The notes under the pieces were generated by a model. That model was not told the origin of the DNA and did not search any database. It worked only from the letters and a program-made list of their open reading frames with translations. From contig CM000150.2 in assembly GCA_000004695.1 (NCBI GenBank), forward strand, positions 4,768,001 to 4,832,000: a DNA stretch of 64,000 nt, written 5' to 3'. Position numbers and translations under genes: made by a program. This document shows, piece after piece, positions 17,053 to 53,704 of the stretch; within the stretch, counting starts at the first letter, position 1; every line of letters begins with the position of its first letter. The DNA is from Dictyostelium discoideum (taxonomy: Eukaryota).

Positions 17053-20000
17053 TTAAATTAAATTATGAATTGATTCAATTTCACTTTGAAGTTTTGGGAA
17101 AAAGGATTCTAATTTTTCATGAAGACCACGTAATTCATCAGGACAACGTTTTGAGTGAATGATTAAACCACATTCTAAAATATTAGCTTGACGAGTTAAT
17201 TCTGAAGAGAGTTTAGAGAGGAAAGGTTTTTGTGGACGATATGGTTCAGGTACTTGATAGAAAGCTTCTTTGTAAAGTGAGATACCACCATTTACAGCTG
17301 CATCGATTGAACCATTTAAAGCCATAGCCAAAGGATTTAAGTTTAGTTGTGGTGATTTTTCATATTTCTTTACCATTTCATCCAATTCTTCATTCTTTGA
17401 AGAGACAGAATTGATGGCATTCTCAATTGGTGATAGATCGACATGAAGTTTCTTTATTACTTGAGCACGACGATGAATGGTTGGGAAAGAAGAGTCAGTT
17501 AAAAGGAAATGATTCTTTATCCAAAGATCACCAAATTTATTATTACTATTTGAAACTACTGCACCTGAAGCCTTTTCAAAAGGTTTAGAATAAACGAAAA
17601 CATTTACATCATTTCTCTTTAAGTAGGATTTCGAATTATTTGGTGTACCTGGTATAATGAATTTTTGTTTCTTTTCAACCTCTTGTAAATTGGATGGATT
17701 AACAACGGTGACTAATAAATATTTACCATCGGAATTTTGAATTTCAGTAGTTGGTTCACTTGTGGATTTCAATAATTCAGCATCTGGGAATTTGGCTAAA
17801 ATTCTAGCGGTGAAGTCGGGTAATCTTTCCAATTCAAAACCTTTGTAAAGGAATTCCTTACCTTGAATTGATAGAGGGAATTTCTTACCGTAATAACCCA
17901 CACGGAAGTATTCAGCAAATAGACGTTCAGTGTTTAGAATCTTTTCATAGAATTCCGCTTCTTGGATTGATACCTCTGATAAACCTTTGAAATTATAGGT
18001 TTGTTCATAATGTAATTTCAAATCTTGTAATAGTGTGATACATCTCTCCCAAACTTGACCTTTATCTAAATATTGAATTGCCATTTTCAAAAGACGTACT
18101 TTACGATCACTTGATGATTCTTGTGGCATTGTTGTTGGTTGTTGATTCAATGCCAATGTATAGGGTGGTACAATTTGTTCTGTATTCCATTCATAAAGAT
18201 CTGAATGTAAAATAATTGCAAAACCAGCCTCTGTATAATAACCATTGGTTAAATGTTGATTTAATAACTCGTAAAGATATTTAATATAGGTATCTTTTCT
18301 ATCCTTAAAATATTCCATCATTTTTAAGGTTGCAATAGTTCTCTCCTCTTCAAAGGCACGATCAGTTGGTAAAGTTCTAAATTCAAATAATAATGATAAT
18401 AATTGATTAATATTTGAAATGAATGATTTTGATTCTTTAATTAATAATTCATTACTACCACTACCACCACCACCATTTACACTATCAATTAAACGTTTAA
18501 TTAAAAAGTTTTTAAATATATCTTCATCACAAATTCTTTCTCTAATTGTAATTTTATCTAATACTTCAATCGTTTTACTTTCAATTCTTTTTAATGATTT
18601 ATATTCTAAAAATTCATTTTTAATTATTATAAAAAATAAATTTTGAATAAATTCATTAACATCATTATTACCATTCTATTTTTTTTTCAAAATAATAAAT
18701 TAAAAATATTAATATTTAAATAAATATATGTAAAAATTAAAAATTAAAATTAAAAAACTTACTAATAAAGAATATAATAAATTTACTAATAATGATTGAT
18801 TAAATTGATTTTGTAATTGAATTGTTAATAAATGATTCCAAGATTTAATTATTGAAATTAAAATAAATGATCTAATTTCATCTAATTGTTGTTTAATATG
18901 AGAGAGACGATGAATTCTATTTTCATTTAATCTTAATGATGAAGAAGTTATGAAAGCAAATTTAACATTAAATAATAATGTCCAACCATCTAAATCTGAT
19001 TGAGTAGTGAAATATTTACAACAATAAGGTTCAAGTACTTCCAATACTGATAAGGTAACATTATATTGGAAAAGATTAAGAGTTGGCCATTTTGATGAAT
19101 AAATGGAACGACCAATAAAACCTTCCATAATACGTAAGAATTTTCTGATGAAAGGTTTAATAGTTTTCTCTTCAGTTAGATTCTCTTGAATATATTTTTC
19201 AAAATGATTTGAATATTTAGTTGGTTGACCATTACCTGTAATTGGTGTACCACATTTAATAAAGTAATGAATTATTGTATAGAAATTTGAAAGTAAATAA
19301 GTATGTTCGGTTGTCATTGATGTAAATGTTGTTGTATCACTTGAAATGGTTGTTAACAATGCATCGGCCAATGTTAACATTTTTGTGAAAACAATTGCAA
19401 TAATACCAACTGCTTTATTTCTATCGATTGGATTTAATATTTCAATAGCTTCTAAAAGTAATGCCAATAATTGATTTGATAATCTTAATTCCTCACCTTT
19501 ATTTAAATGTTGATCAATGGTTGAGATTAATGCTGGTAATAAATGTTGATAAGTTGTTGGTCCAATTGGTAATTGAGTTGATAAAATCTTATGATAGATT
19601 GTTAATTTAGATTGATAGAAATTCTTATCACTATAGTAGACTGATTCCATAAAGTCGGATAAAATTACACAAAGTTCAGTTGTATTGAAAAAGTTACTTA
19701 AACCTTTCATAATTACAGCGAAATTACGTAATGCAAATGTTTGTGGTACAATTAATAGCTTCTCATTACTATTTGACATTAAATTATTAAGTAGTGCCAA
19801 GAAATCTCTTAAATCTTGTTTCCATTGAGTTTCTTCATCATCGATGAGTTGTTTGGCTTGTTGTTCTCTAATATAAACTAATCTTGATTTTGTAATCAAT
19901 TGGAACATATAATCCAAGGCTTTTAAAGTATTTGAAATCTTTGCAGTTTCTTTGGTGGAAATATCCTCTATAGAATAGGAAATACATTTCAATAGATGTT

Positions 20001-22843
20001 TATGTGTTGTTGCAAATGAGAATTGTTCAATTATATAACGATCCATTTCACTCTTAAAATGTTTGAAACGATTGGTTCTTTCATCTGTAAGCAAACCCAT
20101 TACAAATACGATTGTATTATAAACACTTAGAGTATTTGGATCAGGTTTACCACCAACTTTACCTTCATTTGAATACATATCGAAAATTGAAAGTAAACTA
20201 TCTAAAATCTTATTTAAATTTCTCATAATTTGAATTGTATCAACAAATTTGAAACGATCTAATAAATTTGATAATATATTTTTATTATTTTTCCAATCAA
20301 TTAATTGAATAACTGAAGAATGTTGAATGAAATCACTTGAATGTAATAAAGTTTTAACTTTTAATGATTCACCTTTTTTTAATGATGATGATTCTTTTGA
20401 CGATGATGATGATACCGATGATGATGATAATGATAATGAAGAAGATGATGATGAAGAAAGTAATGAAGATTTATTTAAATTTAATCCACTCTTTGATGAT
20501 GTTGTTGGTGATGATTCACCACCACCACTACTACCTTCACCATTACCAATACCAATTTGACTATTTAAATCTATATATGATTGAAGTGGTAAATTATCCA
20601 TTGAATTTAATTTATAGATTGAAATTGAATGATCACCATTTGAAATTACGGTTGAATTATCATTACCTAATTTTAAGAAACTAAAACCAACCAATGAATT
20701 CTTTTCTTTACTTGAAGAGTTTGAACGATTTTTAATAAAGAATAAAACATGAGCTCTTGGGAAATGAGTTTCAGAAATATTGAAATGAATTGATTCATTC
20801 CAAATGGTAGTACCATTACTATTGAGTGGACAAGTGGATGAACGAATCTCACTAACAAATGTACCATTGGCACTATCACCTAAAGACATACAATTTTGAA
20901 GGTATTCACCATCATCCAATCTAACTCTAACGATAACTTCCATTTTCTTACCTTGAGTAAATTTACCACTATCCAATGTTAAATAGAATTTATGAATTTT
21001 CTCTGCAAATACAAGTTTATGTTCTAATTTTTCAACTTTTACAATCTTTTGGAATTGTGGGAATTTATTTGAGAAAACATCGAATCCAATATCATAGAAA
21101 CTCAATGAAATTGGTAAAATCGATTGAGGTAAACCACTTGTTACCTTTGGTACCATTTCCAAGTGTTTTTTAATTTCTTCATCCGAGTTTTTCATTAAAA
21201 AGTCTGGAATTTGTGAAATTGATAAATCGGTTGAAGAGGTTGAATAAAATTGAAGTACACCTTGTCTCTCTAAAGCAATTTGATTTTCAACCACTAAATT
21301 TGGTATTGAAATACAAGCGAATGCATAAGGTCTTCTAAAATCAACGTTTGTACCTTTCTTTAGAGTTGATTCATCTAAATCTTTGAATGGACCTTTACGA
21401 ACTACTTTACAAAGGAAACAAATATCTTCGGTAATATCTGATGGTTCAATATTTTTAAAAATACATTTAAATGATACAATTGATGATGATGTTGATGGTA
21501 AAACTGATTCCCATTCAACTTGAACTTGTTCAGTTATATAACGTGATTGTGAAAAATTATATAATGAAAAATAAAATTCGAAATTCTTTTTTGGTGGTAA
21601 TGAACATTTATTAAATTTAATATCACAAATTATTTGACCATATTCCCATTGTTTTTTAATTCCATTATTATTACCATTATTATCAGTAGAATTATTAATA
21701 CTACTACGATCATTTAAATTTAATAATGATGATGATGATGTATTATTTGGTTGTGATGTTCCTAATTGTAAAAATGATTTCGATGATGATGATGATGATG
21801 ATGAATTCGATGAACCTAATTGTAAAAATGAACCAGATGATGCTAAAATTGATGAAGAAGGTGAAGAAGAGGAGGAAGAGGCGGAAGAAGAAGAAGATGA
21901 TGATGAAGATGATGATGAATCTTTTGTATTTTTCTTTTCATTCATTTGATAATGATATCTTAATAATTTCATTGGCGATTCATTTTCTGATGTTACAATA
22001 TTACCGTTATCATTTATAATATAGAATTCATTTGAAAGGAAAGCTCTTGTAATTTCAATTTCTTTATAGAGTGTAACTTCTAATTCTGGATTTGGTGTTA
22101 TACTATTTAATAATTGTTCACGTACAGTTTGTAATGATTTAACTCTATCTCTTAGAATTAATTGATTCTTTTCAATTTGTTTCTCTGAAATTTTTAATGA
22201 ACTTGTTGTACTATTTGAACGTGGTGATGATTGATTATTTGCAAATAATTCTGGATCCATTAATTGTTCAGAGACTTCAATGACAACATCTAAAAGATTA
22301 CCAAATAGAATATATTCTCTCTCGGTTATATTTCTAACAGAATCAGATGGAAATTCTAATTTCTCACCCCATCCATCTAAACCAACTTTAACTCTACCTA
22401 CATAAGTAGTGGTGGTGGTGGCTGCGGATTGTTTTTTCTCCAATATACATAATACATCACCTCTAATAACAGTATAATTATTATTTGTTCTAATGTCTTT
22501 AATTGCAACCACTTTTTGTGAATCTAATGGTGGTTCATTTTCTTTTGGATAAAGATTTTTTGTATTTGATAGAGAAAACGATGCAGTTTTATAACCATTA
22601 CATCCTAAATAAGTATCCTTTTCACCTTTTTCTTTAATCTCTAAAACATCACCACGTACAACTGATAATGAGGAGAAATCACCTTTTCTATTTGATAAAA
22701 CTCTAACATATTCTTTAGATTTCATTTCTTCTTGTATCTTTTTACTTGATTTCTTTGATATTTCATTACTTAATATTTCATTAATTTCATTTGTAACTAT
22801 TGGTTTAGTAGTTGAAGTAGTTGGTTGATTATTATTATTATTA

Positions 22844-22884
<41 letters not shown>

Positions 22885-23836
22885 GATTGCAATTGATTTT
22901 GGTCTTATTGTTGAAGTTACAGAAGCTTCTGATTGTTGTTCATCTTTTGATGCAATTGGTGGTAATACATAAACTAAAAGTTGTGGATTAGTTGGTGATA
23001 TTGTAGTTGGGCTTGTTGGTGATGGTGTTGATAAATTTTCATTGGTTGATGGTGACTTTCGAATTGGTGTTGTAGATGTAGTTGGTGTTGTTGTTGTAGT
23101 TGTAGCAACATTAGCAGATGTTGTAGTTGTTGCTGCGATCTCTGCTAAATTTTCATTTGATGATGGAGATTTTCTAATTGGTGCTGCACCTTTAAATGAT
23201 GGAGTTGTTGGAGCAGATGTAGATCCTGCTGGTTTAACAAAAACTCTGTTGGCTGGTTTTAATCCTGGTGTAGTTGGTTGTGAAATTGATGCTTGTTGTA
23301 ATCCTGAAGGAGGAGGAGTTGTACTTGTTGTGGGTGTAGATGATCCAATTGGTTTTAAAGTTGGTGAAATTTTAAAAGTTGATGGTTTTGGTGCTGATGT
23401 ACTTGTAATTACTGGTGATGTAGATGGAGTTGATGATGCTGATGATGATGATGCTGAAGTTTGTGGTGTTTCTTGAGGTTTATTTGCTCCTTCTGCTGAT
23501 GTAGATGTAAATGTTGGTGGTGTGGTAGATGTTGGTGTTGCTGCAGATTTTTTTACAATTTTAAAATTTGGTACGACTTTTGGAGGTACTGTTTCTGCAG
23601 CTGGTTTGTTAAACATTCCTTGAAGTTTACTTATTGAGCCAACTGGTTTTGGTACTATAATTATTATTTTATAGTTTTATTTTATTTTATTTATTTTATT
23701 TTTGGATTTTTTATTTTTTTATTTTTATTATTTTTTTATTTTTATTTTTGAATTTAATTTTTATAATTAGAATATAATAAAAAAAAATAAAAAATAAAAA
23801 AATTAATAATTAATAATTACCTTGTTGATCAGCCAT
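17053..23836 (-). CDS. DOCK-family (Dock180/zizimin-type) Rho-GEF with DHR-1 and DHR-2 regions. Exons 23654-18763 and 18675-17053, plus a putative 16-nt first exon 23836-23821 (MADQQ).
   Basis: DHR-2-like C-terminus: ...RTIATLKMMEYFKDRKDTYIKYLYELLNQHLTNGYYTEAGFAIILHSDLYEW ... SLYKEAFYQVPEPYRPQKPF. DHR-1-like segment: HVLFFIKNRSNSSSKEKNSLVGFSFLKLG. The two ORF-track pieces join through an 87-bp intron (TTA|gtaagt ... aaaaatag|AATGGT) at phase 0. The upstream M-A-D-Q-Q G|gtaatt exon joins to ..ttatag|TACCAAAACC without a stop, but this is less certain. Confidence 0.72.
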
Positions 23837-25276: not shown

Positions 25277-25771
25277 TTAAGTATTCCAAGCTAAATAAAA
25301 ATCGGATACAAGTTTTCTACAAATTGAACATTGTGGATGTGAGGTTTTCTTAATTAATGTTGCACATCTTGCGCATAATCGATGACCGCATTCTCTCCAA
25401 CATACTTGTTTTTCATTTTCTTCACAAATATGACAAAATTTTTCACGCTCCAAATCAGTTTGCATCTTTTCCATTCTATCGTTTATATTGTTAATTTGAT
25501 TACCAACCCAAACACGCAAGTCTCTATTTTCACCTCTAAGATTTGAATTCTCTCTTAATAGTAATAGATTTTGTTCCTCCAAAGGTAATGGCTCACCATT
25601 TTTATTCTTTAATTTTACATGTTGAACATTTGATGGTGGAGGTGGTGTTATTGGTAAGAATGAAGATGAAGTTGTAGTTGTTGTAGTTGTTGTTGTAGTA
25701 GTTTGTTGAACATGGTTATGATGATTATTATTATTATGGCTATGGTTATGGTTATGATGGATATGGTTATT

Positions 25772-25814
<43 letters not shown>

Positions 25815-26092
25815 GGTGGTGGAATGACATCTTGGTTTATATAATTGTATTGATTAAAATTATCTACACCATTTTCAGCATTATTATTCTCAAAGGCACC
25901 TGCTGGTCCTATACCAATTTCATCATCTGATGTTAAAAAATAATAAGCCAAACCAAGTCCTGCCACAATTGTCGTCCACAAGTATGGCGATTTTAAATGT
26001 TCTTTTAAGTCAAAATTTAATACACTTTCAACTTTTATTGGTGCACCTTTTGTAAAATATTTAAATGCAAAATCTTCTTCCAATGGATCCAT
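25277..26092 (-). CDS. Membrane-anchored RING-finger (C3HC4) E3 ubiquitin-ligase-like protein, 271 aa.
   Basis: One predicted TM helix (LWTTIVAGLGLAYYFL), polyQ and polyT linkers, a coiled-coil-like stretch, and a C-terminal RING: CHICEENEKQVCWRECGHRLCARCATLIKKTSHPQCSICRK. Confidence 0.75.
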
Positions 26093-27839: not shown

Positions 27840-30574
27840 CTAATCCCAACTTTCTTCAATGGTTGGAATATCAGATAATGTATCTAATAATGGATTACCA
27901 CTAGAGTCAGTTGTTGATGTAGTTGTGGTTGAATTACTTGAGTTAACACGATGTTGTTCAATTGGTTCATTTGGAGCACTAGAAGCAGTTGAAGAGGCAG
28001 TGGTGGCAGAGTTGTTATTGTTGTTATTATTATTATTATTGTTGTTATTACTGCTGTTATTATTATTATTACTACTTGTAGTAGTATTATTGAATTTACT
28101 AGTGAATGGTGGAGTTGAAATTGTTGGATTTTCTTCATGAGCATTTGCAAGTCTATGAACTTCATCTTTAACAGATTCTTTAATATCTTCTCTGAGATAT
28201 TCTTTTAATTCATCATTAAATTCTTTTTTGAAACCATCACGAATCTCATGATTTGGATCATCAACACCCAATTGATTCTCCCAATCATCGATTTGTTCAT
28301 TGAGTTCTTCTTCCACTTCACTATCGGATAATTCATCAATGATTTCATCTATTTCTTTATCCATTTCCTCTTCAAATTCTTGTTTATTGAATTTCTTTTC
28401 TTGATTATTGTTTAATTCTTTTTCATTTTCCAATTTCTCTTCAATTTCATTCTCATCTTGAACTAAATCATCATCAATTAATGATTTTGCTTCTTTTAAT
28501 TCATTCTCTTGTTTTAATTCCTTTTCAACTTGATCTGATAGATCGAATTCATTCAAATGATTTAATTTATCATTTTCTTCAACTGGATCAAATGAGAATG
28601 AAATCTTTGGTTTTAATTCCTCTTCTTCTTCTTCCTTTGGTTCTTCTTCTGGTTCTTCATTTTCTTCTTCTTCTTCTTCTTCTTCTTCTGGTTCTTCTTC
28701 TTCCTCTTCCTCTGGTACAACTTCATCATTCATTATATTATTATTTAATAATTGAGGAACCATTACATCATTATCATCACCATCAAATTCTTGATCTTCT
28801 TGTTCACTTTCATCAAGAATTCTTCTTTTTAAAATTTCATTTTCAATTTCTTTTTCCAATTGTTTTTGTAATTTTTGTTCTTCAATTCTTTCAATTTCTT
28901 GTTCTAATTGATCGATAATACCTTGTTCATTTTCTTTTTCAATTTGTTGTTCACCAAATTCTTCATCATTATCTTCTTGTTCTTCTTGTTCTTCTTCCTG
29001 TTCTTCTTCCTGTTCTTCTTCTTGTTCTTCTTCTTGTTCTTCTTCTTGTTCTTCTTCTTCTTCTTGTTCACTTTCTTCTTGTCTTCTCTTTTTAATTTCG
29101 GTTTCAATTTCTTTTTCTAATTGTTTTTGAATTTCTTGTTCTTCTTCTTTTTCCATTTGACTATCTAATTCATCAACAATGTTTTGATCTTCTTTACTTA
29201 ATTTTTGATAATTTAATTCTTTTGGTTTTAAATCTTTAATTGTATCAAATGAAAGAGGAATATTTGCAGTACGTTTTGAAAGAATAGGTTTAACATCAAT
29301 TTGCATTGGTGATTGTTCAACTACACCCAAGGTATGAGATGGAAATTGTGGATGATGTTTCATTGCTGATTTTTCAACTTTTTTACTTTGTTTTGGACTT
29401 GCAATTGTTGATTCAGATTTTGATTTTGATAAATTGAAACGAACACTCTTACGAGGGACAAATGCATTGGCAGTTGGTTTTAAAACTGATGTTGATTTAT
29501 TCATATTTCTTAATTGTGTTAAACGACTACCACCAGTATTTGATTGTAATTGTTGTTGTTGTTGTTGTTGTAGTTGTTGAAGTTGTTGTGGTGATTGTTG
29601 TAGTTGTTGTTGTTGTTGATTTTTAACACCACCATGTTCTTTATAATAACTATGGATACATTCATCTAATAGAATTGGGAATAAATGTTTAATTGCTCTT
29701 GGAATGTGTTCTTTACCTTTAACATTTTTATTCCAAATATGAATCATGTTGAAATCCATTCCTTGTTTCTTTCTAATTGAAATTCCACAAATATCATCAT
29801 TATCTTGTAAATATGAACTAAATTGTTCACCAATAACGGATAAAACCAATTCATTCCAAACTTCATCTCTTTTTTAATTTAAAAAAAAAAAAAAAAATAA
29901 TTAATAACATTTTAAATTATTTTTTATTTTATTTATTTCTTTCTTAATCAAATAAACTTACGTTTGGTGTTTTTTAACCTTCATTACAAATTCACCACCA
30001 TCTTGATTCTCTTCCCAAATTGGACGTGTTCCTTTTTTAAATAGATGAAAGCATGAATTATTTGGTAATTTGGATAAACTTGGGATTATATTGAAACAAT
30101 TCCAAAAAGCCTTTTGTTTTTATTTTTTAAAAAAAAAAAAAAAAAAAAAATAAAATAAAATATATAAAAATAATTAATTAAAATAATAATAATAAAAAAA
30201 AATTAGTATTTGTTTATTTTATTAAATTATTTATAATTTTTATTTTTAAAAAAAATAAAAATAAACAGTAAAAAAAAAAAAAAAAAAAAAAAATTAATTA
30301 ATTAATACATTACTTGAATTGTTGAAAATGAATTTAATTGAGTTAATGCATTTAAATATTCATCAATTGAGGCAACTGAATTATTATTATTTGTGTAATG
30401 ATCTTCCCAAAATGACCATTCATTTTCTAATACTAATTCTTCATGAACATCTTTATGTTGAAGTGGTTGAGGATTTTCAGATGATAATTGTTGAGGTTGA
30501 TGTTCTTGAGCGATGAAAATTTGTTTCTTTTTTTTATTTTCCTTATCAGTGAAACTATTTAAAAATATTTCAGT

Positions 30575-32144: not shown

Positions 32145-33801
32145 ATGAAATTATTATCAACTTCATCAAAATGTTTTAAACAATCATTAAAGATAAACTA
32201 TAGAAATTTTAGCTCATCAAATAAAATTTTTAAAAACTATACAAACAATAGTAAAAATTATAATAATAACAATAATAATTCTTTTAATGAAAATAACTAT
32301 AAATTAATTTCAGCAATTGGAGTCTCAACAATAGTTGGTTTAGGATTTGTAAGTATTTATTAAAATTAATTTATATTATTTATTTAAATTTTAATTCTAT
32401 TTTATTTTATTTTATTTTATTAATAATAAAATAAAATAAATAAAAAAAAAAAAGTTTTCAATTTTAAATTTAGAAGAAGAAAAAAAAAATATTATAATTG
32501 AAAAGAATAAAATTGATAGAATACCAGATGAAGCAAAAAAAGAATTGGTATTAATATTTTCAGAAAGATTTGTTACACATCCATCAGATTTGGAAGCACA
32601 TGGTAAAGATTTTAGTTATCATGAAAGAGCATCACCAGATGCAGTTATTTATCCACATAATCAAGAGGAAGTTAAAAAGTTGGTAGATATCGCAAGAAAG
32701 TATAGGATACCATTGATTGCATGTGGTGCAATGACAAGTTTAGAAGGTCACACTCTTTCAAACTATGGCGGTATTTCAGTAGATTTTAGAAATATGTCTA
32801 GAGTGTTACAAATTTATAAAGATGATTTCTACGTAACCGTCCAACCAGGTATTTCCTACGGTGATTTAAATGAGGAATTGAAAAAGATTGGATTCTTTTT
32901 CCCAGTTGATCCAGGTCCTGGTGCAACTATTGGTGGTATGATTGGAACAAGTGCATCTGGTACTCATTGTGTTCACTATGGTACAATGAAGGATAACGTC
33001 CTCTCGATGAAAGTTGTGCTCCCAAATGGTGATATTGTAACCACAAGAAGCAAAGCAAAGAAGTCATCAGCAGGCTATGATCTCAACCATCTCTTCATTG
33101 GGTCTGAAGGCACATTGGGTATTGTTGTCGAAGCATCATTAAAAATCCAACCAATTCCAACCTGTTCACAAGTCTCATTGGTAACATTTGATAGTATCAC
33201 CTCTGCATGTGATGCAGTAATTAAAACCATGCAATCGGGTGTTCAAATTGGTAGAGTTGAATTATTGGATGATGTTATGATGAATGCAGTCAATTTAGCA
33301 AGTAATACAAACTATTCAGAGAAACCTACTTTAATTTTCGAATTCTCAGGTCCATCGCAAGGTATGGTTCAAGAACAAATTTCAAAAGTTAGTGAAATCA
33401 CCAGAGAATGTAATTCTTTAGATTTTAAATTCTCAAGTACAAATGAAGAAAAAGAAAATCTTTGGATGGCTAGAAAGGTTGCATTATGGAGTTCAAAAGT
33501 TTTAAGACCATCATCTGAAGTTTGGATCACTGATGCTTGTGTACCAATCTCAAAACTCTCTAAAATTATAGATGAAACAAAAGTTGATATCTCTAAAACC
33601 TCATTATTAGCACCATTGGTAGCTCATGCTGGTGATGGTAACTTTCATCTTTTCATTCTTTTTGATCCAAATAATCCAAAAGAATTTGAAGAAGCTAAAT
33701 TCATAAATGATAATTTAGTTAATAGAGCAATTGAATATAAAGGTACTTGTACAGGTGAACATGGTGTTTCTTTTGGTAAAATTGTATTGTATTATTTTTA
33801 T

Positions 33802-33837
<36 letters not shown>

Positions 33838-34063: not shown

Positions 34064-37588
<3,525 letters not shown>

Positions 37589-40242: not shown

Positions 40243-40483
40243 TTAATATAATTATTTTCTATTTATAGATTTTTTAAACATAAAATTTTTATATAAAATT
40301 AAACACAAACAAGAAAACAAAATTTTTGTATAATTACTTTTTTTTTTTTTTTTTTTTACACATAATTAATTAATTAATTAATCATCAACAACAATAACAA
40401 TAACAATAACAACAAAAAGCAAAAAACAAAAATATAAAAAAACAAATAAAATAATATAAATAAATAAATAAATAATATATAGA

Positions 40484-40769
40484 ATGGAGGCAATTACAAT
40501 TGAAATTAATCAAGAAGGTATTTTAGATTTTGTTAAAAAATCATCACTCTCAAAATGGAAGAATAGATATGTCAGATTAGTTGATGGTGGTATTTATATT
40601 TATAAAACTGATAAAGATGAAGACTTTAAATGTATAGATTTAGAATTTTCAGTTTTAGACTCCAACCCAAAAGAAGCAGGAAATAGACCAAACTCATTTT
40701 TAATTAGAGATTCACATAATAAAGCTTTTCTTTTCTCTGCAAATACATCACAAGGTAAATAATTTTTAA

Positions 40770-40818
<49 letters not shown>

Positions 40819-41557
40819 AAACATATTAATAATTTTTTTTATTTTTTTATTTTTTTTATAATTATTATTATTATTATTATTTATATTATTTAAAGAATAT
40901 AATAAATGGTTAGAAAATGTTAAAAGATCAACTGGTAAAAAGAATTCAGGATGTCCAACATTTGATTCAGCAGTTGCAAAGAGAGAAGGTAGAAATGATA
41001 TAATGTTTAGAGCAAAAAAGAATATTTCAGGTAAGATCGCTAGTTCAGGAGTTGGTAAGAGTGGTTTAAAGAAATTGATTCCAGAAGAGGGTCGTGAATT
41101 GATTGGATCAGTTAAAAAGATCATTAAGAGAGTCTCAAATGAAGAGAAAGCAAATGAAATGGAGAAGAATATCCTAAAGATTTTAATCAAAGTGTTTTTC
41201 TACATTGATTCTAAAGCAATTCAAATTGGTGATTTGGCAAAGGTTGATAGAGCTTTACGTGACGGTTTCAATCATTTAGATCGTGCTTTCAGATACTATG
41301 GTGTAAAGAAAGCCGCTGATCTCGTTGTAATCTTGGAGAAGGCTTCTACTGCCTTGAAAGAAGCTGAACAAGAAACTGTAACCTTACTCACTCCTTTCTT
41401 TAGACCACACAATATTCAACTCATTCGTAATACTTTTGCATTTTTGGGTTCTTTAGACTTTTTCACTAAAGTTTGGGATGATTTGGAAATTGAAGATGAT
41501 TTATTCTTATTAATTAGTGCTCTTAACAAATATACTCAAATTGAATTGATTTATTAA
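40484..41557 (+). CDS. PH-domain plus TNFAIP8/TIPE-like domain protein. 2 exons: 40484-40754 and 40896-41557.
   Basis: N-terminal PH-like segment: GILDFVKKSSLSKWKNRYVRLVDGGIYIYK...NSFLIRDSHNKAFLFSANTSQ|EYNKWLENV (the split-PH C-terminal Trp). The C-terminal roughly 190 aa (KIIKRVSNEEKANEMEKNILKILIKVFFYIDSKAIQIGDLAKVDRALRDGF...TLLTPFFRPHNIQLIRNTFAFLGSLDFF) has the all-helical TIPE-family pattern. The donor is G|gtaaat and the acceptor is ..taaag|AA, in frame. Confidence 0.65.
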
Positions 41558-41746
41558 ATAAATAATAATTAATTAATTAATTAATTAATTAATTAATCAA
41601 TCATAAAAAATAAAAAAAATAAAAAAAATATTAATCAGTAATAATTATAATAATAATAATAGTCAATAATATAAAATTCAAAAATCATAAACATATATAT
41701 GAAAATAAAATTTAATAATACACCAATCACAATAGTTTTATAGTAA

Positions 41747-42030: not shown

Positions 42031-43239
42031 ATGGAACAACAACAACATGATGATAATATAATTATAGAAGAAACTAATAATTCAATAACATTTAATGTTT
42101 GTAATACAATAAAAAGTAAAGTTAAATATGAAGATTTTTCAATAGATTCAATAATGAATTATCAAGAAATAGCAGAAGAGTTAGATGAAGAGGGTAATGT
42201 AATTGGTGAACCAGTTGAACAAGCAAAAGAAAAAGTAATAATAAATTCAAGTTTAAATGAAAACTCTAAATTTATTGGTTGTAATTCATTTTTTCATTCT
42301 GCTATCAAAGCATTTTCAGAACACCATCATTTAAATATACGTCCTGATGATATTTGGATGGCAATTTTAAATAATTTTTCAACTTTTATTAATAAATATG
42401 CACAAGATTTGAGAGACAAGTTGGTAGACTTTAAAGAGGGAAAGAAATTATTAATGGTTGAAACTGACTATCCAATTTTAAAAGCACCTCATGATAAATT
42501 AACATTAGAAATTAGTAAAGAAATTGAAAAAAATATAAAAGATCCATCAATTCGTGATTGGATAATACCAAATTTTTCAACAACCACCCAAACTGATAAA
42601 GTTGTTTTCGCATCTGCATTAATGTCAACTGTAAAATCTTTTTTCGATTTTAAATGTTATACAAGATGTGGTTTACCAAGTGTTACTCTTTTTGGTACTG
42701 TTGATGATTGGTTAAATTTAAAAGAAAGAATTGAAAGATTGAAAGAATTTGATATTATAAAAAATAAAAACCAAGAGGAAGAAGAGGAGGGACAAGAGGT
42801 AACTAATAAACCAATTATGAGTGAATGGGTATCAATGCTTCATCCAATCATTGATGAATTCATTTTAACAGCATCAGGTAAACCAAATATTGAATGGTGG
42901 TCATTAATTGCTAAAGAAAATGCAATAAGTGGTGGGCCTATTATAAATGGATGGATTACAGTTTTTTCAATTTTTAATAAAAAAAGTGTTTGTATATTTG
43001 ATAATCAACAATATTGGTCCAATGGAAGGGAAAAAAGATTATTAAATCCTAATACTTGGTTGAGAATAGGTTATCATATGGCTTTAAATGGTTATCTTTC
43101 TTCTCCAATTCTTTTGGTTGAAGGTCCCAATCAATACAACTCAACTTTATTTGGTGGACATATGGCAATTAAAATTGATGAAAATTCTCCAACAACAATT
43201 TCCCCTTCACTTGATTGGTGTTTGGTTATTGATAAATAA
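42031..43239 (+). CDS. Hypothetical protein, 402 aa, possibly of the DUF4419 family; single exon.
   Basis: Clean ATG-to-stop ORF with normal composition. Motifs seen in DUF4419 proteins: IRPDDIWMAILNNFSTFIN, TRCGLPSVTLFGTVDDWLNL, WSLIAKENAISGGPIINGWITVF. The family assignment is from memory and not certain. Confidence 0.45.
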   Translation: MEQQQHDDNIIIEETNNSITFNVCNTIKSKVKYEDFSIDSIMNYQEIAEELDEEGNVIGEPVEQAKEKVIINSSLNENSKFIGCNSFFHSAIKAFSEHHHLNIRPDDIWMAILNNFSTFINKYAQDLRDKLVDFKEGKKLLMVETDYPILKAPHDKLTLEISKEIEKNIKDPSIRDWIIPNFSTTTQTDKVVFASALMSTVKSFFDFKCYTRCGLPSVTLFGTVDDWLNLKERIERLKEFDIIKNKNQEEEEEGQEVTNKPIMSEWVSMLHPIIDEFILTASGKPNIEWWSLIAKENAISGGPIINGWITVFSIFNKKSVCIFDNQQYWSNGREKRLLNPNTWLRIGYHMALNGYLSSPILLVEGPNQYNSTLFGGHMAIKIDENSPTTISPSLDWCLVIDK

Positions 43240-43939: not shown

Positions 43940-50335
<6,396 letters not shown>

Positions 50336-51721: not shown

Positions 51722-52134
51722 ATGAGTTTTCTTAAAATTAATAAAATAGCATTAAAATCTTCAACAACTATTTTAAAATCTTCTTCACCTTTATCAGGCA
51801 AAACCAAATTTAATCATATTAATAGTCGTAGTAGTAGTAGAAGCAATGAAAATAATTATGAAAAAAGATATTATTCATCATTTAGTATGAAAGAAGATCC
51901 AGAACCATCAAAACCATTTGGTTTTAAACCATTAATTGCATTAGTATTGGTTGGTGGTATTAGTGCATATTTATACAAAGCTTGGGATAATCAAGATTTC
52001 ATGTTTTCTTCTAAGTTACCATACCAAAGAGAAGAAGTTGAAAAATTTAAAAAAATCATGAAAGAAATACATCAAGATTCACAAAGAGAAAATTTAAATA
52101 TTGAAAAAGAATCAAAAGAATCAAAAGAATCTGA

Positions 52135-52176
<42 letters not shown>

Positions 52177-53704
52177 TCAACAAGAAGAAGAAAAAGAAGA
52201 AGAAAAAGTAGGAGTAGAAAATACTACATTAGAAGATAATATTATAGAATCAATAAAAAATCATGAAGAAGAAATGAAAAATGAATTGGTATCATTAATT
52301 GAATCAGTTCAAGATAAATATGCACATTCAAATGATGATGAAATCAATGCAGATGAAAGAGAAATGGATTCAGAGACTGGTGTTAGTATTAGTGATGAGA
52401 TTTCAAAATTAATTGAAGAACATAAACAAAATGAAGAAGAGTCATTACCAGATTTACTTGATGTTAATTATGGTGTATTATCTATTATTCCAGAAGCTGT
52501 TAAATCTGCTGAAGAAACAGTTGAAAATGCATTAAAGAAATTCACTCATAGCAATGATGATGATGATGATACAACAACTACTTCAATCATTATTAATACA
52601 TCAGATGAATTAAAGAATCATAATATTAATATTGAAAATGGAAATGAAGAATCTTTAGTCGATTCATTAGATGTTAATTATAATGTATTATCAATTATTC
52701 CAGAGAAAGTTAAATCAGCTGAAGAAAAAGTTGAAAATGTATTAAAGAAATTTGAAGAACAATATTTGGAGAAAGTTGAAAAATTAATTTCTGAAAATAT
52801 GAAGTTAAAAGTTGATTTTGATAAACTTATCAATGGAAAAGATGATGAGTTAAAGAGAGTAGAGGAAGAGATTAGAGAAAAGTATAGATCATCATTAGAT
52901 GCAGCTATTGAAGAGTTGAATAAGGATTTGGATGAAAAGTTAAAGGATATGGATCAATTCATAAAGTCAAAGGTATTTGATAACCAAGCAGTGCTTCAAG
53001 AGACATTGGAAAAACAAAAATCAAATCTTATCAATATTTTCAAACAACAGGCTGAATCTATTAAACAATCTGAATTGGAGAAGAGGGCAATCACTCAATT
53101 GACTCAATGCATTGTGGATCTTCAAAAACTTTTACATGATAAATCAGCTATCGACGGTGCTAATGGTAAGGGATTGCTCGTTAGATCGTTCAAGAATTTG
53201 ACAGATCTTTCAAACTATGATCAGTTGATTAAGGAATTACTCTCGACTTTACCAGAAGGATTTGAAAAGAAGCCAGTCATTCCTCTCGATACATTGAATA
53301 ATCAATTCCAAGATATTGCAAAGAAATTGAGAAAGTCTCAATTAATCGATCCAAATGATAATTCTTTGCTTGGTAAAGCAGTCTCAGAGTTGGCTTCTTT
53401 ATTTATCATTCCAGAGAAAGGTATGGTTCAAGGTAATGATTATGATGCTATCTTGGCTCGTGCTGAAGATCACTTAAGAAAAAATAATCTCTCCTCTGCT
53501 ATCAAAGAAATGGAATCCATTCAACAACAATCCTCAAAATCATCAACAAACATCGATAATCATCACCTTTCAAAATTAACTTCCAATTGGATTAAACAAG
53601 CAAAAGAAAGAGATCAATTAGAAAATATTTCAAAATTATTAGAGTTAAAATTGGAATTAATTCATAAACAACAACAACAAATTAAAGAGGAACAACAAAA
53701 ATAA
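51722..53704 (+). CDS. Mic60 / mitofilin homolog (MICOS subunit), 660 aa, single exon.
   Basis: N-terminal S/R-rich presequence, a single TM (FGFKPLIALVLVGGISAYLY), about 450 aa of coiled-coil-like E/K-rich sequence, and a C-terminal mitofilin-type signature: DYDAILARAEDHLRKNNLSSAIKEMESI...LTSNWIKQAKERDQLENISKLL. Confidence 0.65.

Follow-up and report, generated by a model that had tools for sequence, protein, structure and literature searches.

The DNA analysed here is a 64-kb stretch of the Dictyostelium discoideum genome, referred to below as the window, and all positions are numbered within it. Inspection of the sequence shows a composition typical of Dictyostelium, with 24% GC and long homopolymer runs. 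The locus under study is gipA (DDB_G0271086), and its product is Gip1, the G-protein interacting protein 1, a cytosolic prenyl-shielding factor for G protein. A probability of about 0.97 is given to this reading, and nothing in the analysis contradicts the identification of the gene. Gip1 is already known, having been described in 2016 and its crystal structure published in 2018; the novelty that a preliminary description of this DNA implied for a fusion of PH and TIPE domains is therefore not upheld. The parts of gipA and its neighbouring features are listed in Table 1.

Table 1. Features of the window, in order of position.
Feature	Position	Strand	Description and basis
422-aa ORF	17053-18321	-	DOCK-type DHR-2 lobes A, B and C (Pfam)
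1635-aa ORF	18709-23616	-	Adjacent to the 422-aa DHR-2 ORF, on the same strand
RING-finger protein	25277-26092	-	Pfam
669-aa ORF	27840-29849	-	No Pfam match at E<=1e-3
FAD-linked oxidase	32545-33807	+	FAD_binding_4 and FAD-oxidase_C (Pfam)
1023-aa protein	34064-37135	-	Partial, weak protein-kinase match (Pfam)
gipA exon 1	40484-40754	+	271 nt, ATG at 40484; residues 1-90 and base 1 of codon 91
PH domain of Gip1	40532-40930	+	Residues 17-102, interrupted by the intron; Pfam, AF2, Foldseek
gipA intron	40755-40895	+	141 nt, phase 1, GT..AG (GTAAAT...TTTAAAG), 2% GC
gipA exon 2	40896-41557	+	Bases 2-3 of codon 91, residues 92-310, stop TAA at 41555-41557
Linker of Gip1	40931-41059	+	Residues 103-145, predicted disordered; holds FRAKKNISGK
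TNFAIP8/TIPE-like G-protein-binding domain of Gip1	41060-41554	+	Residues 146-310, equal to the crystallised construct; helices alpha0-alpha6, cylinder with hydrophobic cavity
402-aa single-ORF protein	42031-43239	+	Immediately downstream of gipA; almost all DUF4419, a function-unassigned family (Pfam, E 1.6e-92)
1086-aa ORF	43940-47200	-	No Pfam match at E<=1e-3
PHD-finger protein	47417-50335	-	Pfam
Mitofilin/Mic60	51722-53704	+	Pfam, E 4.8e-138

Gene structure and identity of gipA

Among the neighbours, the 1635-aa ORF probably represents the upstream portion of the Dock-family Rac/Cdc42 GEF gene to which the 422-aa ORF belongs, split from it by an intron. No tRNA genes are found in the window. 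Simple repeats of the (TAAT)n/(AATT)n type lie on both sides of the gipA coding sequence (40366-40384 and 41567-41597), an (AAC/AAT)n run is located in its 5' leader (40386-40416), and its intron contains a poly(A) tract of about 42 nt (40775-40816). Low-complexity sequence of this kind is typical of Dictyostelium, and no function is evident for these repeats or for the intron poly(A).

Joined in frame, the two exons form a coding sequence of 933 nt that is translated into 310 aa; the length of 311 aa given earlier counts the stop codon. The donor (AAG/GTAAAT, cut after 40754) and the acceptor (TTTAAAG, cut before 40896) split codon 91 (Glu) as G/AA, and the junction peptide reads ...FSANTSQ-E-YNKWLENVK.... 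The joined translation is identical at 310/310 residues to XP_646779.1/EAL72893.1 (DDB_G0271086, D. discoideum AX4), and residues 146-310 are identical at 165/165 positions to PDB 5Z1N_A and 5Z39_A, named 'G-protein interacting protein 1'. The residue numbering also agrees with that of the published papers, with Y303, T304, E307 and L308 all found in ...KYTQIELIY. In Table 1 of a review, gipA (Gip1) is equated with DDB_G0271086 (PMC8369479). Because the AX4 record XP_646779.1 is still labelled 'hypothetical protein' at NCBI, the protein is tied to the gene name through the PDB sequence and this one review table.

Near-identical proteins of 310 aa are present in other D. discoideum strains, in D. 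citrinum and in D. firmibasis. Orthologues with 64-80% identity from every major dictyostelid genus in the sample (Heterostelium, Cavenderia, Tieghemostelium and Acytostelium) show no junction-specific gap in the alignment, and distant homologues, including the transcript-derived ones of Physarum and Ceratiomyxa, are likewise aligned across the splice junction with no such gap. The sole indel near the junction is a loop of 1-4 residues, about 15 residues upstream, in Physarum-type sequences. The identity to XP_646779.1, the gap-free homologues at the junction and two Pfam domains far above their gathering thresholds argue together that the gene model is no chance join.

An in-frame TAA at 40760-40762 ends the unspliced reading frame of exon 1, and a mechanical reading of the region gives two separate ORFs, one of 92 aa (40484-40762) and one of 184 aa (41003-41557). 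The two exons could accordingly be regarded as different genes and their join as an artefact, with a PH protein that stops at this TAA and a TIPE protein that starts from M127 (41003). Such a reading is opposed by the annotated protein, which equals the joined one, and by the published Gip1, which has an N-terminal PH domain together with a C-terminal G-protein-binding region and was used as full-length purified protein in binding assays (PMC6219514, PMC8369479). More than 50 homologues, transcript-derived ones included, carry both domains in one chain, and the 141 nt between the exons combine their very low GC content with canonical splice ends. According to the structural model, the PH fold would also be left without its C-terminal helix if exon 2 were absent. 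The assignment of the exons to separate genes is effectively refuted, and next to no weight is left on it.

On the antisense strand, a 196-aa ORF (40600-41190) was rejected as an artefact of the mechanical listing, in which bacterial start rules were used; it crosses the 2%-GC intron.

Domain architecture of Gip1

The preliminary description proposed that a PH domain is joined to a TNFAIP8/TIPE-like domain, and a Pfam search of the joined protein had been set beforehand as the means of checking it. This search matched both PF00169, at residues 17-102 (score 49.2 bits, cut-off 25.1; E 8.6e-13), and the TIPE profile PF05527, at residues 123-306 (score 137.2 bits, cut-off 22.5; E 7.4e-40), where the match spans positions 3-180 of the 181 in the profile. 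The two-domain architecture is further borne out by AF2, Foldseek and a homologue profile.

The full-length AF2 model was built from 11 homologues and has a mean pLDDT of 75. Its N-terminal part is predicted to adopt a PH fold with seven beta-strands (residues 10-85), all of them encoded by exon 1, and a capping helix (residues 89-102), which begins two residues ahead of the splice junction and is mostly encoded by exon 2. The segments WKNRYVRL (25-32), FLIRDS (72-77) and EYNKWLENV are all present, so that the earlier view of a split PH domain completed over a phase-1 intron holds good. W95 in the C-terminal helix is invariant in all 15 of 15 diverse homologues in the alignment. In Foldseek searches with the model, the N-terminal half matched many PH domains of the PDB with a target-normalised TM of about 0.8.

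Between the two domains, the linker has pLDDT values below 50 at residues 116-145. The segment FRAKKNISGK (F128-K137, 41006-41035) lies upstream of the crystallised fragment and is nearly all invariant in close homologues, and its K132 is invariant in 15/15 diverse homologues. No role of FRAKKNISGK has been described in the Gip1 literature examined; it may act in regulation or in membrane binding.

The C-terminal half is a true member of the TNFAIP8 family. AF2 models an all-helical domain at residues 145-305, and Foldseek aligned the C-terminal half of the model with 5z39/5z1n at 100% identity, with a target-normalised TM of 0.93-0.94 and an rmsd of 1.4-1.8 Å (0.94 and 1.4 Å for 5z39). Within the PDB, the model also matched mammalian TIPE2 (3f4m, E 1.3e-4, target-normalised TM 0.74). 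A profile built from 15 homologues recovered TIPE3 (4q9v, 1.5e-16), TNFAIP8 (5jxd, 5.6e-13), TIPE1 (8gyn, 2.9e-12) and TIPE2 (3f4m, 2.1e-7). When the single Gip1 sequence was searched against the PDB with phmmer, Gip1 itself and PH domains were recovered, whereas mammalian TIPE chains were absent from the hits at E<=10; the Pfam HMM or a homologue profile was needed to reveal the relationship. In 11 close homologues, D208, R212 and E307 are unchanged. Since the linker is poorly modelled and the pTM is 0.47, the placement of the PH domain relative to the TIPE domain is not confident, and the model says nothing on gating of the cavity by the PH domain.

In the 1.95-Å structure of Gip1, helices alpha1-alpha6 form a cylinder around a hydrophobic cavity that is 22 Å deep and 10 Å wide (PMC6219514). 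Members of the mammalian TNFAIP8 family (TNFAIP8, TIPE1-3; 5JXD, 8GYN, 3F4M, 4Q9V) have this fold in common with Gip1, their helices forming a cylinder around a hydrophobic cavity that binds lipid, and the superposition gives an rmsd of 2.0-2.7 Å over 88 residues (PMC6219514). The primary-sequence similarity is low. Roles in directional cell migration are ascribed to both by one paper. Nevertheless, several differences exist. The C-terminal tail of Gip1 runs along alpha3 and not into the cavity, and alpha0 is differently oriented (PMC6219514). Gip1 carries an N-terminal PH domain, whereas the solved mammalian chains, with 160-198 residues, correspond approximately to the TIPE domain alone. In addition, the documented cargo of Gip1 is the prenyl group of a protein and not PIP2/PIP3 as for mammalian TIPEs (PMC6219514).

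Cargo of the cavity and function of Gip1

As recounted in PMC8369479 and PMC6219514, Gip1 was discovered by Kamimura et al. (2016, PNAS) as a G-beta-gamma binder through tandem affinity purification. The C-terminal region alone is enough for G-protein binding and cytosolic sequestration, and gip1-null cells are left without the cytosolic pool of G protein and exhibit a chemotaxis defect at high cAMP (PMC6219514, PMC8369479); the relevance to chemotaxis suggested by the preliminary description is thereby confirmed. Deletion of the G-gamma CAAX box abolished binding to Gip1, and geranylgeranyl pyrophosphate (GGPP) competes for it (PMC6219514). Gip1 function was impaired by cavity-filling Trp substitutions and by mutations of D208 and E307, the latter residue being solvent-pointing yet required for G-protein binding (PMC6219514). 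The PH domain, for its part, is required when cAMP triggers the delivery of G protein to the membrane, and this delivery does not depend on PIP3 (PMC6219514, PMC8369479). G-beta-gamma binding, its dependence on lipid, the phenotypes of the mutants and the changes in localisation have all been shown by published experiment.

In the mechanism proposed, the TIPE-type cavity would receive the geranylgeranyl group that G-gamma carries on its C-terminal cysteine, while the C-terminal tail, through E307, adds a protein-specific contact with the G protein; cavity and tail contact together keep a cytosolic reserve of heterotrimeric G protein in soluble form. Upon cAMP stimulation, the G protein is released and moves to the plasma membrane, a step that requires the N-terminal PH domain and not Ras activity, PIP3 or F-actin. 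By this shuttling, G protein is redistributed along the gradient, gradient sensing gains a wider dynamic range, and chemotaxis is extended to high cAMP. That the prenyl group is physically inside the cavity is what we infer from mutagenesis and competition, because the crystals hold PE/PG and there is no structure of a complex with G-gamma.

Another possibility is that Gip1 serves mainly as a dual phosphoinositide module, in which the PH domain directs the protein to membrane rich in PIP, where the TIPE domain would extract PIP2/PIP3 or transfer it. The family membership of the C-terminal domain speaks for such a function, and TIPE2, TIPE3 and TNFAIP8 of mammals have been reported as phosphoinositide carriers (PMC6219514). 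PIP binding or transfer is a functional property of some TNFAIP8 members and no criterion of membership. The crystal cavity was occupied by bacterial PE/PG, which demonstrates that a glycerophospholipid fits it, whereas its entrance is negatively charged and the binding of G protein depends on the CAAX/geranylgeranyl moiety of G-gamma and is competed by GGPP (PMC6219514). Gip1-dependent translocation occurs without PIP3 production, no ligand of the PH domain was assigned by the authors, and neither the structure paper nor the review gives phosphoinositide-binding data for Gip1 (PMC6219514, PMC8369479).

The PH domain itself bears on the same question. The canonical phosphoinositide-binding basic motif of PH domains, in beta1-beta2, is K-x-small-x(6-11)-R/K-x-R-hyd-hyd. 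The corresponding stretch of Gip1 reads K18-K19-S20...K26-N-R28-Y-V, in which the spacer is shorter than this motif allows. The lysines K18, K19, K24 and K26 are invariant in close homologues, which is in favour of phosphoinositide binding, whereas R28, in the K-x-R part of the motif, is replaced by S, C, N, V or L in other orthologues. Because R28 varies, a canonical 3-phosphoinositide site is not evident from the PH sequence. The statement of the preliminary description that both halves bind phosphoinositides, together with the transfer activity it assumed, was extrapolated from mammalian TIPEs and is unsupported in view of the geranylgeranyl cargo, the acidic cavity mouth and the PIP3-independent translocation. 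Phosphoinositide handling as the main function of Gip1 is therefore considered improbable, and shielding of the G-protein prenyl group remains the preferred reading.

Prenyl anchors are also shielded by PDE-delta and RhoGDI. Both of these have a beta-sandwich fold, unlike Gip1. The Gip1 authors compared the three, as each covers a prenyl anchor in a hydrophobic pocket, retains its client in the cytosol and delivers it to the membrane (PMC6219514). The clients of PDE-delta and RhoGDI are small GTPases, whereas that of Gip1 is the heterotrimeric G protein, and release from PDE-delta proceeds via Arl2/3, while no such trigger has been assigned for Gip1 (PMC6219514). By analogy, Gip1 might be a general prenyl-binding solubilising factor with many geranylgeranylated clients rather than one specific to G protein. 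[quoted passage not shown] A general factor is accordingly regarded as very unlikely, more so than a phosphoinositide module, and Gip1 is best seen as a prenyl shield for G protein in particular.

Distribution of PH+TIPE proteins

An exhaustive phmmer search with Gip1 was carried out over 1.84 billion cluster representatives at 50% identity, and it returned 240 proteins at E<=1e-3, 117 of which reached E<=1e-10. Among the best 150 of the 240, approximate counts are 58 full-span matches, 73 partial two-domain matches and 53 TIPE-only matches, where a full-span match begins within the first 30 Gip1 residues, extends past residue 270 and hence includes both domains. The earlier remark that TIPE proteins normally stand alone applies to the animal proteins, as stated by one paper and as fits the short mammalian chains; as a general rule it fails, with about 58 of these best 150 representatives being two-domain.

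Two-domain proteins are found in Amoebozoa, namely in dictyostelids, Ceratiomyxa fruticulosa, Physarum polycephalum, Mastigella eilhardi, Phalansterium solitarium and Paradermamoeba levis, and in unicellular opisthokonts, namely the holozoan Syssomonas multiformis and the nucleariid Lithocolla globosa, the latter two being represented by transcriptomes only. Pfam confirmed PH and TNFAIP8 domains in the proteins of Ceratiomyxa, Physarum, Mastigella, Phalansterium, Paradermamoeba, Syssomonas and Lithocolla. A second word-indexed homologue search, with the 15-homologue alignment, contributed almost nothing: one more Physarum paralogue, and no other named organisms. This paralogue (P0180, a P. polycephalum transcript of 350 aa) is a divergent PH+TNFAIP8 protein with 26% identity to Gip1, and the other Physarum sequence, P0020, is closer. 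In a further EukProt transcript (P0070, 471 aa), a dual-specificity phosphatase domain (DSPc, E 6.3e-20) is followed by PH and TNFAIP8 domains. D. discoideum itself has only one TIPE-related protein according to one paper. The PH+TIPE architecture is thus not peculiar to Dictyostelium and is widespread among those relatives of animals and fungi that are amoebae or flagellates. No paper describing this distribution was found in a literature survey of incomplete coverage.

The residues important for Gip1 function are not equally conserved across these proteins. R212 is invariant throughout the diverse PH+TIPE homologues in the alignment. E307 has been retained in dictyostelids, Physarum, Ceratiomyxa and Mastigella, and is mostly His in more distant PH+TIPE proteins ('...YTQFHF'), which argues against a simple conservation of function. 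Comparison of these sequences suggests that the client protein may differ outside the E307-retaining group. It is conceivable, albeit rather doubtful, that PH+TIPE was the ancestral form in Amorphea, that animal TIPEs have lost the PH domain, and that handling of prenyl groups or G protein is an old function of the family. The PH-less animal TIPEs reported by one paper would be expected after such a loss; because the opisthokont evidence comes from transcriptomes only and E307 is replaced, an ancestral PH+TIPE protein with a conserved G-protein function is kept as speculation.

As for Gip1 itself, the window adds nothing new. Besides Gip1, no cytosolic 'chaperone' has been described that serves the prenyl anchor of a heterotrimeric G protein, and Gip1 links TIPE proteins to gradient sensing; all of this has been published. 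The distribution of PH+TIPE proteins provides a comparative handle on what the PH domain senses and on whether mammalian TIPEs handle prenylated proteins.
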